Shown here one piece after another: positions 15,001-18,000 of a DNA stretch of 39,682 nt. Position numbers: made by a program. Position 1 is the stretch's first letter. Each line of letters begins with the position of its first letter. Source of the stretch: Escherichia coli (GTDB lineage: Bacteria; Pseudomonadota; Gammaproteobacteria; Enterobacterales; Enterobacteriaceae); the NCBI RefSeq assembly GCF_003334335.1, contig NZ_QOWQ01000040.1; one strand, given 5' to 3'.

Positions 15001-18000
15001 GTAGCCAGGCTACCAATTGGGGTAATTTTCGGTCCCAAATCGCAGCCAATCACATTGGCATAAACCATCGCTTCTTTGATAACGCCAGATGCCGTGCTGC
15101 CATCAATGGACAACGCGCCAACCAGTACCGTCGGCATATTGTTCATAATAGAAGAGAGGAAGGCGGTGAGGAATCCGGTGCCGAGCGTCGCGGCCCACAG
15201 GCCGTTATCCGCCAGCACGTTGAGTACGCCAGAAAGATATTCCGTTAATCCGGCATTGCGCAGGCCATAAACCACCAGATACATGCCGAGCGAGAAGATG
15301 ACAATCTGCCAGGGGGCACCGCGCAGGACTTTACCCGTATTAATCGCATGACCGCGTTTAGCGACGACAAATAATATCAGCGCGCCCACAGCTGCAATGG
15401 CGCTCACCGGAATGCCGAGCGGTTCCAGGACGAAAAATCCCACCAGCAGAAGCAGTAAAACAACCCAGCCAGTTTTGAACGTAGCAGGATCTTTGATCGC
15501 TTCTGCGGGAGATTTCAGCAGCGCCATATCGTAGTTCTGCGGAATATCTTTGCGAAAATAGAGATGTAACATCACCAGCGTGGCAACAATCGCGGCGATA
15601 TCCACCGGCACCATCACCGAGGCGTATTCGCGAAAGCCGAGGCCAAAGAAATCAGCGGAAACGATATTCACCAGGTTGGAGACAATAAGCGGCAGGCTGG
15701 CGGTATCGGCAATGAATCCGGCCGCCATCACGAACGCCAGCGTAGTGCCTTTACTGAACCCTAAAGCCAGCAGCATGGCGATGACAATCGGTGTCAAAAT
15801 AAGCGCCGCGCCATCATTGGCAAACAGGGCGGCAACGGCAGCACCGAGCAGGACAATCCAGGTAAACAGCAAGCGACCACGACCATTACCCCAGCGTGAG
15901 ACGTGCAGCGCCGCCCATTCAAAAAAGCCGGACTCATCCAGCAGCAGGCTGATGATAATGACGGCGATAAACGCAGCCGTCGCGTTCCAGACGATATTCC
16001 ACACCACCGGAATATCACCCGGATGGACCACGCCCGTAACTAACGCCAGTACTGCGCCGAGCGTTGCACTCCAGCCGATGCCTAAACCTTTCGGCTGCCA
16101 GATAACCAATACGATGGTCAGGACAAAGATAGCGCCTGCCAGTAACATAATGCCTCCCGGATAAAACACATCTGAAAATTCATATGTGTTTAGCTAAATT
16201 TTTAACTGCAAATGTTCTTACTGTCCCCGGAACAGTTTTGTCGAGCCAGGTTGCGGACAATCGCCTGAACCTTTTCCTGTTCACATCGCCAGGCCTCATC
16301 AATAATTTTCGCCGCCCATGCTGGAATATGCGGTGATAAGCGGTAATGAACCCACTTACCTTGCTTGCGGTCCAGCAATAGCCCGCTTTCACGCAGCAAT
16401 GCCAGGTGGCGGGAGATCTTGGGCTGCGACTGGTCGAGAGCAGTGCAGAGATCGCAGACGCATAACTCTCCCAGTTCGCTGAGCAGTAAAACGATGCCCA
16501 GACGGGTTTCATCAGCAAGAATTTTGAACAATTGGATGGGTAACAGAAATGACATATTGCGCTCCTGATTGTTGCAGGTAGTGTCTCTCTTCGAAGCGGA
16601 TAAGTCAAAAACATATATGACTTAACGAATGTGTAAGTGCAGAGGAAGGTAATAGGTGTGAATTTTGAGTTGGCTATTCATTTGAAAGGAGGTCTGAATC
16701 AGGACGTAAAAAAACCGACTTTGCGTCGGTTTTTTACTTTCCAGCCCTGAGTTGGTGGCTCTGGCTGGAGTGAGAGAGTTCTTATCTAACAGCTCAATAC
16801 TATTAGCCAGTGGCTAACATTGCAAGAATTAGCGATTTCTTCAGCTGGCGGAGGGAGCACTTCGGTATATATCGCAGTGACGATTTATATACTTTCACTG
16901 GGTCATCGTCATATTAAGCCTTGTCCGAATCCGGATGTAAAAAAACCGACTTTGCGTCGGTTTTTTACTTTCCAGCCCTGAGTTGGTGGCTCTGACTGGA
17001 GTGAGATAGCCATCATCTAACGCATCAATGCTAATACCATACTGAAACTATTGCAAGGACGTGCTGGTTTTATAACCTGCATGTACTGTATGATTATCCA
17101 GTTAGCTCTGAGGCATTTTCACTCTGGCAATGCGCATAAACGCTTTCAAAGTCCTGGTCAGAAGTACGGGTGGTGCCGTTAACTGATGCTCTGGCCGGAG
17201 TGAGAGAGTTCTTATCTAACAATGAGACATGCGCCGTGACAGGCAGTGGATGAGTAAGCGGATGCATTCTCACTCCATCGCATGGAGAAAACGGGTGATT
17301 GATAAAGCAATCATCGTTCTAGGGGCGTTAATTGCGCTGCTGGAACTGATCCGCTTTCTGCTTCAGCTTCTGAACTGATAGCGGAAACGTAATTAAGGGC
17401 TAAGAGCACACTACTCTTAGCCCTTTAACATTTAACGCATTGTCACGAACTCTTCTGCCGCCGTTGGGTGAATGGCGACGGTATTGTCGAAGTCTTTTTT
17501 GGTTGCCCCCATCTTCAGCGCCACCGCGAAGCCCTGCAACATTTCGTCCATACCAAAGCCAATGCCGTGAATACCGACAATCTTCTCTTCCGATCCAACG
17601 CACACCAGCTTCATGCGGCACGGCTGGCGGTGAGTGGTGACGGCGGTATACATCGCGGTGAAAGAGGATTTATACACTTTCACCTGATCGTCGCCATACT
17701 GCTCGCGCGCCTGCGGTTCCGTTAAACCAACAGTACCAATCGGCGGATGGCTGAAGACCACGGTCGGAATGTTGCTGTAATCCAGATGCTCATCCGGCTT
17801 GTTATTAAACAGGCGTTCAGAGAGACGGCGACCCGCTGCAACTGCCACCGGTGTCAGCTCCACTGCACCCGTGTTATCGCCCACCGCGTAAATACCTTCA
17901 ATATTGGTGTTTTGATATTTATCGACGACGATATAGCCTTTTTCGTTAGTTTTAACGCCAGCGGCTTCCAGGTTGATGTTGTCATTGGCAGGCTCGCGAC

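Follow-up and report, generated by a model that had tools for sequence, protein, structure and literature searches.

The gap between arsR and gor in a 39,682-nucleotide stretch of Escherichia coli DNA (contig NZ_QOWQ01000040.1 of assembly GCF_003334335.1; the whole stretch is called the window below) carries, with near certainty, the chromosomal dinQ-agrAB type I toxin-antitoxin (TA) locus of the E. coli K-12 type, in which the toxin gene dinQ stands beside two genes for small RNAs (sRNAs), agrA and agrB. Both the locus and its mechanism are already known (Weel-Sneve 2013; Kristiansen 2016), and we found nothing in the sequence that contradicts the published model. To it the present analysis adds sequence identity, family membership, pairing energies, a qualitative structural switch in silico and the covariation of target and antisense across strains. 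From the latter a broader picture emerges that we consider probable: pairing between the dinQ leader and its antitoxin would be specified by an 8-nt core, of which at least five alleles exist in Escherichia and Citrobacter, co-varying between the leader and one agr gene; which paralogue is the cognate one would depend on the lineage, the dinQ-proximal copy being the ancestral choice and the K-12 arrangement a derived one; and the same repeats would drive recurrent deletions.

Across the 876 bp that separate arsR from gor (16556-17431; a sequence-only reading of this DNA, which we followed up here, had put the gap at 870 bp), the window is 100% identical to E. coli K-12 MG1655, and many other strains are identical as well. 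The genes dinQ (b4613), agrA (b4712) and agrB (b4713) of the MG1655 record NC_000913.3 map onto the gap; dinQ, agrA, agrB, the LexA operator, the terminators and the arsR/gor flanks are base for base those of the published locus (Weel-Sneve 2013; Kristiansen 2016), which the reading had thus named correctly. It had also described the locus as invisible to annotation. This is true of a track of long open reading frames (ORFs) but not of annotation at large: records made by the Prokaryotic Genome Annotation Pipeline (PGAP) contain the dinQ coding sequence (CDS) and leave the sRNAs unannotated, the MG1655 record has agrA and agrB, and Rfam holds an AgrB family. The proposed 27-codon, GTG-initiated dinQ frame coincides exactly with the RefSeq CDS, and its product scores 54 bits (cut-off 30, E 1.4e-14) against the NCBIfam equivalog NF041472, 'damage-inducible type I toxin DinQ'. 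The Rfam family RF02891 (AgrB; gathering score 40) matches the minus strand at full length twice, with 108.4 bits at 16706-16789 and 106.2 bits at 16937-17020. Weaker hits were discarded: plus-strand AgrB matches of 22-27 bits are due to the palindromic terminators, a minus-strand match of 22.7 bits at 17134-17219 is the leader repeat, and matches to Spy779816 are due to chance. Used as a query, the K-12 gap was matched in 5,423 of 5,426 complete E. coli genomes.

Central to the locus is a direct repeat in three copies. A repeat search delimits it to 34 nt at 16758-16791, 16989-17022 (79% identical) and 17188-17221 (97%); the 32-nt element recognised earlier is indeed present, but copies 2 and 3 had each been drawn one base too long, the consistent register being 16759-16790, 16990-17021 and 17189-17220. 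Copy 1 belongs to agrB, copy 2 to agrA, and copy 3 lies, as had been proposed, inside the dinQ leader, where it forms nt 88-119 of the 194-nt 5' untranslated region (UTR). Copies 1 and 2 are parts of a longer duplication, about 133 nt in extent and with a period of 231 bp (approximately 16695-16828 versus 16926-17058), which comprises whole agr transcription units, from the terminator through the -10 to the -35 element. AgrA and AgrB differ at 6 positions, all of them inside the 5' 26 nt.

Within the 31 nt that are internal to the transcripts, one base separates copy 1 from the leader copy and 7 bases separate copy 2 from it, in keeping with the single difference and the several differences that had been noted. 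The alignment of the repeats and the duplex prediction, which had been put forward as a check, set the two RNAs apart: the 5' 31 nt of AgrB form 30 of 31 Watson-Crick pairs with nt 88-119 of the dinQ leader, the remaining position being an A·C mismatch, at a dG of -53.6 kcal/mol, whereas AgrA reaches 24 Watson-Crick pairs, 4 G-U pairs and 3 mismatches, with a dG of -38.1 kcal/mol. Only 31-nt duplexes were used, because RNAduplex returned an implausible extended duplex for full AgrB against a 110-nt target. The A·C mismatch at repeat position 8 (16765 and 16996 versus 17196) is conserved, in that every sampled E. coli chromosomal leader with C at this position faces A in the matching Agr RNA; in AgrB this base is part of the RNA's own first stem-loop, and in the leader it is part of the element termed sequence 2. 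The mismatch does not occur in E. coli L022, whose cognate copy has C there, in Escherichia sp. E1V33 or in the Citrobacter loci.

How might a repeat so far upstream of the start codon control synthesis of the toxin? Five dinQ transcripts have been described, of which only the +44 form is translated (PMC3567139). The dinQ leader contains four elements that engage in mutually exclusive pairings: in the +1 transcript, elements 1 and 2 pair, and elements 3 and 4 hide the Shine-Dalgarno (SD) sequence; in the +44 form, element 1 is gone, elements 2 and 3 pair, and the SD is open, as seen in structures obtained by selective 2'-hydroxyl acylation analysed by primer extension (SHAPE; PMC5066626). When AgrB binds at nt 88-119, the SD hairpin closes again, translation is blocked and RNase III is directed to cleave, whereas AgrA has none of these effects (PMC5066626). 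The numbering of that study (antisense region, SD, GUG and terminator) fits the window exactly with +1 at 17101. Our minimum free energy fold of the +1 form reproduces the long stem and the SD hairpin, and that of the +44 form leaves the SD unpaired. Averaged over the four SD bases, the probability of being unpaired is 0.08 in the +1 form, 0.22 in the +44 form and 0.02 in the +44 form with nt 88-119 blocked; forbidding this region to pair, in imitation of bound AgrB, restores the SD hairpin. For O157-type leaders (L006, L007) the same calculation gave results too noisy for interpretation.

The course of events is, with near certainty, as follows. LexA occupies the operator overlapping the dinQ promoter, and dinQ is therefore transcribed mainly after DNA damage. 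The 331-nt +1 transcript is untranslatable, with a stem between nt 1-28 and nt 94-120 leaving sequence 3 free to join sequence 4 in a hairpin that hides the SD. Loss of the first 43 nt releases sequence 2 (in nt 94-106) for pairing with sequence 3, upon which the SD opens and DinQ is made from the GTG at 17295, enters the inner membrane and depolarises it, with a fall in ATP. AgrB, a constitutive product of the other strand encoded some 400 bp upstream, binds leader nt 88-119 with its first 31 nt, displaces sequence 2, recloses the SD hairpin and creates a substrate for RNase III. AgrA, a tandem duplicate that in K-12 is mismatched to the target in the 8-nt core, does not block translation. 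Experiments published for this very sequence have established the transcripts and their start sites, initiation at the GTG, toxicity, the SHAPE structures, the specific inhibition by AgrB and the cleavage by RNase III; which nuclease makes the +44 form, and what the toxin does for the cell, are matters that we infer.

Several reservations attach to this account. The thermodynamic predictions are qualitative, and the unpaired probability of the SD in the +44 form is far from 1. Our Watson-Crick count for AgrA, 24 of 31, is at odds with the published 25 of 31. A simple consensus scan for promoters and terminators missed both agr promoters and both agr terminators, because the promoters match the consensus at 8 of 12 positions, below the threshold, and because the A-tract pairs with the T-tract and leaves no T tail; the scan returned just a weak minus-strand promoter-like site and the dinQ hairpin on the wrong strand, and was not used as evidence. 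Finally, the physiological benefit of DinQ is still unsettled in the literature. On the transcripts themselves the published record is direct: agrA and agrB are constitutive, divergently transcribed sRNAs with consensus-like -10 and -35 elements, and Northern blots and primer extension on the same sequence demonstrate the minus-strand RNAs that the sequence-only reading had called for (PMC3567139). The terminator element shared by copies 1 and 2 is identical, as had been stated; the word bidirectional, which had been attached to it, describes the symmetry of the hairpin only.

Is the division of labour between the two sRNAs a general one? Repression of dinQ had been ascribed to AgrB and not to AgrA. 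In K-12 this stands for the +44 form and for toxicity, which are countered by AgrB only, and deletion of agrB, not of agrA, causes dinQ-dependent sensitivity to ultraviolet light (UV; PMC3567139); it does not stand for the +1 form, which both sRNAs lower in vivo. Nor does the division seem to extend from K-12-type strains to other lineages. Besides identical loci, the K-12 query retrieved other matches at 90-98% identity and shorter structural variants from the complete genomes. In addition to K-12, the comparison took in 23 chromosomal loci of E. coli, of which 21 came from the complete genomes and 2 from a species scan, together with 6 dinQ loci of outgroups or species representatives and 3 loci on plasmids; each agr 5' end was set against the leader of its own genome. 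The sample is small and was chosen to represent classes rather than at random; linkage of leader and agr alleles was checked in the sampled loci only, and frequencies are exact-match counts and counts from evenly spaced hit lists.

Within the pairing region, constant flanks enclose a variable core of 8 nt at repeat positions 18-25. The K-12-type leader carries the core allele GAGTTCTT. The alleles ATGCCATT and ATACCATT occur in several E. coli lineages and in Escherichia sp. E1V33, TAGTCGTC in several E. coli lineages, E. albertii and E. whittamii, ATGCCCAC in E. coli AREA_499 (L022) and TAGTTATC in Citrobacter; the Pantoea core is quite different from the Escherichia and Citrobacter alleles. 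Wherever the promoter of a chromosomal locus is intact, one of its agr copies departs from the resident leader by at most 2 mismatches in 31 nt, with a dG of -46.8 to -61.2. Such a matching copy was found in all 18 intact E. coli loci, all 6 outgroup loci and all 3 plasmid loci, the plasmids being scored over 36 nt; they share the architecture of the chromosomal loci, and their best 36-nt duplexes lie at -53 to -62 kcal/mol. The second copy of two-copy E. coli loci has 3-6 mismatches and a dG of about -36 to -47. Among the sampled alleles, a different core goes along with compensating changes in the 3' arm of the +44 hairpin SL3, at leader nt 124-127 directly beyond the repeat, and SL3 is therefore kept in each. 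An exact K-12 leader 70-mer is present in 1,672 of the 5,426 genomes (about 31%) and an exact ATGCCATT-type 70-mer in 1,802, to which 431 genomes with 1-3 mismatches may be added; in 704 genomes the leader finds no match.

The position of the cognate copy varies along with the allele. It is the arsR-proximal copy in K-12, WCHEC005237, E09 and AREA_499, and the dinQ-proximal copy, at the agrA position, in 10 of the 14 sampled two-copy E. coli loci (L006, L007, L008, L012, L014, L015, L019, L020, L021 and L032), O157:H7 and E69 among them. Where an E. coli strain has only one agr, this gene occupies the proximal position and is cognate. The outgroups (L027, L031, L033, L035 and L036) are similar: just one agr, and a cognate one, is present in each of E. 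albertii, Escherichia sp. E1V33, Citrobacter youngae and Citrobacter sp. On2M, its 5' end being 274-275 nt away from the ORF, at the agrA position, and E. whittamii carries a pair of copies, each of which forms a good duplex. Since the single-copy outgroups carry their cognate agr at the agrA position, this position is probably ancestral and the K-12 arrangement derived. Judged by complementarity and by the K-12 precedent, the proximal copy would thus serve as the antitoxin in non-K-12 lineages, and the view published for MG1655, AgrB as the antitoxin and AgrA as degenerate, would hold for K-12-type alleles only. In the literature searched, the coverage of which is incomplete, we found no statement of a lineage-dependent cognate copy or of population variation, which may be noted elsewhere; T1TAdb takes the more stable of the two predicted antisense RNAs. 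Among 12 matches from the genome collection, one (L034, a Megasphaera metagenome-assembled genome) was a chance 20-mer match with no dinQ and was rejected. Another of the 12 (L030) is an E. coli-type dinQ-agr locus on a contig binned into a Lachnospiraceae metagenome-assembled genome, likely through binning contamination.

These observations bear on the status of AgrA. Rather than a decaying pseudogene, it might be a functional regulator that acts on the +1 form or on another target, or that holds a specificity allele in reserve should the leader change. We give this reading an even chance. Its promoter, stem-loop and terminator are intact, and it differs from AgrB in the 5' pairing region only; it shares with AgrB the effect on +1 dinQ, and its level rises 9.5-fold in an agrB mutant (PMC3567139). 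The well-matched agrA-position copies of other E. coli loci and the single agr of E. albertii, Escherichia sp. E1V33 and the two Citrobacter species point in the same direction. Against it, AgrA changes neither the SHAPE pattern nor the translation of +44 dinQ in K-12 (PMC5066626), deletion of agrA is without a UV phenotype (PMC3567139), and no other target of AgrA is known.

The toxin itself has been characterised as a 27-aa, GTG-initiated, single-pass peptide of the inner membrane that depolarises the membrane and lowers ATP, and both its toxicity and its translation in vitro have been published for the identical sequence, as has the induction of dinQ via LexA and UV (PMC3567139); the toxicity and the damage induction that the sequence-only reading had expected are thus on record. 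A longer frame of 49 codons runs from an ATG at 17229 to the same stop (17229-17378) and was the original dinQ annotation (PMC3567139). That this frame gives the true product, the 27-codon reading being an artefact, is very improbable: translation in vitro and toxicity point to the GTG-initiated peptide (PMC3567139), published start-codon mutants have already ruled the longer product out, GGAG stands 7 nt before the GTG, the NCBIfam model spans the 27-aa part alone, and the DinQ homologues of Pantoea and of an IncX1 plasmid have ATG exactly at the GTG-equivalent codon. The minus strand opposite the dinQ leader holds a 59-codon ORF (17094-17273), which probably represents a spurious call within the 5' UTR region; its counterpart is annotated by PGAP as a 57-aa 'hypothetical protein' in L015 (848-1021) and L020 (839-1012).

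That the three repeats are passive leftovers of duplication without any RNA-RNA function, as membership of copies 1 and 2 in a larger tandem duplication might suggest, deserves next to no credence and is already refuted by published gel shifts, SHAPE and RNase III assays (PMC5066626), by at least six leader core alleles in Escherichia, Citrobacter and Pantoea, each matched by compensating changes in the resident agr copy, and by the bases just 3' of the repeat, which co-vary with the core and keep SL3 in the predicted folds.

The repeats do appear to have a second life as sites of deletion, their spacings of 231 and 199 bp recurring as deletion sizes in other strains. A 231-bp deletion leaves one agr (L003, L016); a further loss of 199 bp is seen in L005, L023, LF82 (L024) and the ST131 strain 5506 (L025), and 430 bp were lost in one step in L017. 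The product is a fused form: one hybrid repeat links the body and terminator of an agr gene to the part of the leader that begins at nt 120. Lost in the fusion are leader nt 1-119 and the promoters of both agr and dinQ, the latter together with its LexA box, and no promoter-like site remains in the fused loci. They retain the dinQ CDS, still labelled 'damage-inducible type I toxin DinQ' by PGAP; DinQ of ST131 carries L15Q. In L004, L005 and L023-L025, arsR and arsB are absent and arsC directly adjoins the agr/dinQ region. The two junction types, with and without arsRB and with different hybrid cores, suggest that the fusion deletion arose more than once. Among 60 evenly spaced hits 9 are fused, or about 15% of genomes; coverage of the K-12 query below 80%, seen in 829 genomes, agrees with this estimate. 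LF82 and O25b:H4-ST131, both of phylogroup B2, are among the strains with the fused form. Absence from B2 has likewise been reported for tisB/istR (PMC9040746).

The LexA operator that had been recognised upstream of dinQ is borne out. Its core is present, and the 20-mer TACTGTATGATTATCCAGTT matches the palindromic consensus at 15 of 20 positions, the sole site with at least 15 of 20 in the 39.7-kb window, where Markov-1 simulations lead one to expect 0.09. This 20-nt score was used in place of the loose core pattern CTGT-N8-ACAG, which, with one mismatch allowed, is not enriched in the window (12 found versus 10.9 expected). LexA operators have been placed in the dinQ promoter, one with a heterology index of 4.83 and a second, 'in close proximity' to it, with an index of 13.82 (PMC3567139); we list a candidate for the latter in the table. 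The operator is unchanged in 17 of the 18 sampled promoter-bearing E. coli loci, strain E69 having one substitution, and in Citrobacter a LexA-like box, AACTGTATACTTATCCAGTT, is retained, equally far from the ORF. The 20-mer has no match in the Pantoea dinQ loci L026 and L037, the dqlB plasmid loci lying outside this search.

Features of the dinQ-agrAB locus and its flanks (window coordinates; leader numbering as in PMC5066626)
Feature	Position	Strand	Remarks
arsR	16202-16555	-	left flank of the gap
agrB terminator element AAAAAAACCGACTTTGCGTCGGTTTTTT, 28 nt	16708-16735	-	identical to that of agrA; about 24 nt left of copy 1 (coordinates as read on the + strand)
agrB sRNA, 82 nt	16708-16789	-	b4713; Rfam RF02891; 5' 31 nt (16759-16789) are repeat copy 1, followed by stem-loop and Rho-independent terminator
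Putative agrB promoter	16797-16825	-	-35 TTGCAA (16820-16825), 17-nt spacer, -10 TAGTAT (16797-16802); from sequence, 8/12 to consensus
agrA terminator element AAAAAAACCGACTTTGCGTCGGTTTTTT, 28 nt	16939-16966	-	identical to that of agrB; about 24 nt left of copy 2
agrA sRNA, 82 nt, paralogue of agrB	16939-17020	-	b4712; Rfam RF02891; 5' 31 nt (16990-17020) are repeat copy 2
Putative agrA promoter	17028-17056	-	-35 TTGCAA (17051-17056), 17-nt spacer, -10 TAGCAT (17028-17033); from sequence and alignment of the duplicated units
Candidate second, weak LexA operator	17062-17081	+	12/20 to consensus; assignment uncertain
LexA operator TACTGTATGATTATCCAGTT (20-mer)	17084-17103	+	overlaps the dinQ -10 region and the transcription start G17101
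LexA core CTGTATGATTATCCAG	17086-17101	+	CTGT-N8-CCAG; read in the sequence
dinQ primary (+1) transcript, 331 nt	17101-17431	+	+1 is G17101 (PMC5066626 numbering)
Leader sequence 1	17116-17128	+	alternative partner of sequence 2
+44 processing site, U44	17144	+	PMC5066626 numbering
AgrB binding site, nt 88-119 (G88-A119), repeat copy 3	17188-17219	+	repeat search, duplexes, PMC5066626
Leader sequence 2	17194-17206	+	inside the AgrB site; pairs with sequence 1 or sequence 3
Leader sequence 3	17267-17278	+	alternative partner of sequence 2
SD-sequestering hairpin	17273-17287	+	in +1 and in AgrB-bound +44 (PMC5066626)
Shine-Dalgarno GGAG (nt 184-187)	17284-17287	+	7 nt 5' of the GTG (GUG 195); PMC5066626
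dinQ CDS, 27 codons, GTG start, encoding VIDKAIIVLGALIALLELIRFLLQLLN	17295-17378	+	RefSeq WP_001295215.1 / YP_001165328.2, identical coordinates
dinQ Rho-independent terminator	17395-17425	+	inverted repeat with 12-bp perfect arms; SL9 A295-U325 of PMC5066626; just beyond the stop codon of gor on the opposite strand
gor	17432-18784	-	right flank; places the locus at the chromosomal arsR-gor position

Given its design, dinQ-agrAB invites comparison with other type I systems. Like tisB-istR-1, an SOS-induced TA system of E. coli, it combines a LexA-repressed toxin whose inert primary transcript is activated by 5' processing with a divergent antisense RNA, encoded in trans, whose target in the 5' UTR is far upstream of the start codon and whose pairing leads to cleavage by RNase III, and in both the toxin is a small depolarising peptide of the inner membrane. 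The two are, however, unrelated in sequence, the antitoxin gene of the tisB locus is not duplicated, and IstR-1 competes with standby ribosome binding, whereas AgrB recloses an SD hairpin. Closer relatives are the dqlA/dqlB-agrB loci of enterobacterial plasmids (Kristiansen 2016; PMC12317039), which share a homologous toxin, a 5' UTR with a four-element switch and a homologous Agr RNA encoded upstream in the opposite orientation, with the target about 106-112 nt before the ORF; they differ in being plasmid-borne, in their role in plasmid stabilisation and in having 1 to 3 agr copies. The Salmonella IncFII plasmid NZ_CP022492 (L009; 695-1012, 358-453 and 1283-1378) has two dqlB genes, with three tandem Agr-like genes before the second; here the toxin-proximal copy pairs best, at -53 versus -33 and -43 kcal/mol. 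The zorO-orzO and shoB-ohsC systems likewise employ trans-encoded, divergent antisense RNAs, with about 18-20 nt of complementarity to the toxin 5' UTR, but are unrelated to dinQ-agr in sequence and lack regulation by LexA. The zor-orz locus is also tandemly duplicated, with the difference that the whole TA pair, not the antitoxin alone, was copied. Elsewhere in the window, Rfam matches above the gathering score identify GadY at 1308-1421 (150 bits), the sRNA ES205 at 7200-7271 (105 bits) and ES036/CssrF at 25798-25838 (42 bits), all on the minus strand.

What do these findings mean for the dinQ family? For the locus in the window itself they bring no new biology, although they confirm that a toxin locus with a short ORF and sRNA control, missed by long-ORF tracks, can be recognised by reading the raw sequence without tools. 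The comparison of strains, by contrast, probably makes the textbook statement that AgrB is the antitoxin and AgrA a degenerate copy a lineage-specific one, and it amounts to natural compensatory-mutation evidence both for the RNA-RNA interaction and for the leader hairpin SL3. It also suggests that repeats shared by an antitoxin and its target are recombination substrates able to delete the promoters of toxin and antitoxin together. Such a simultaneous loss would be a safe route by which to lose a TA system, and annotation continues to call a 'damage-inducible toxin' in B2 pathogens such as ST131 and LF82, whose damage-inducible promoter is gone.

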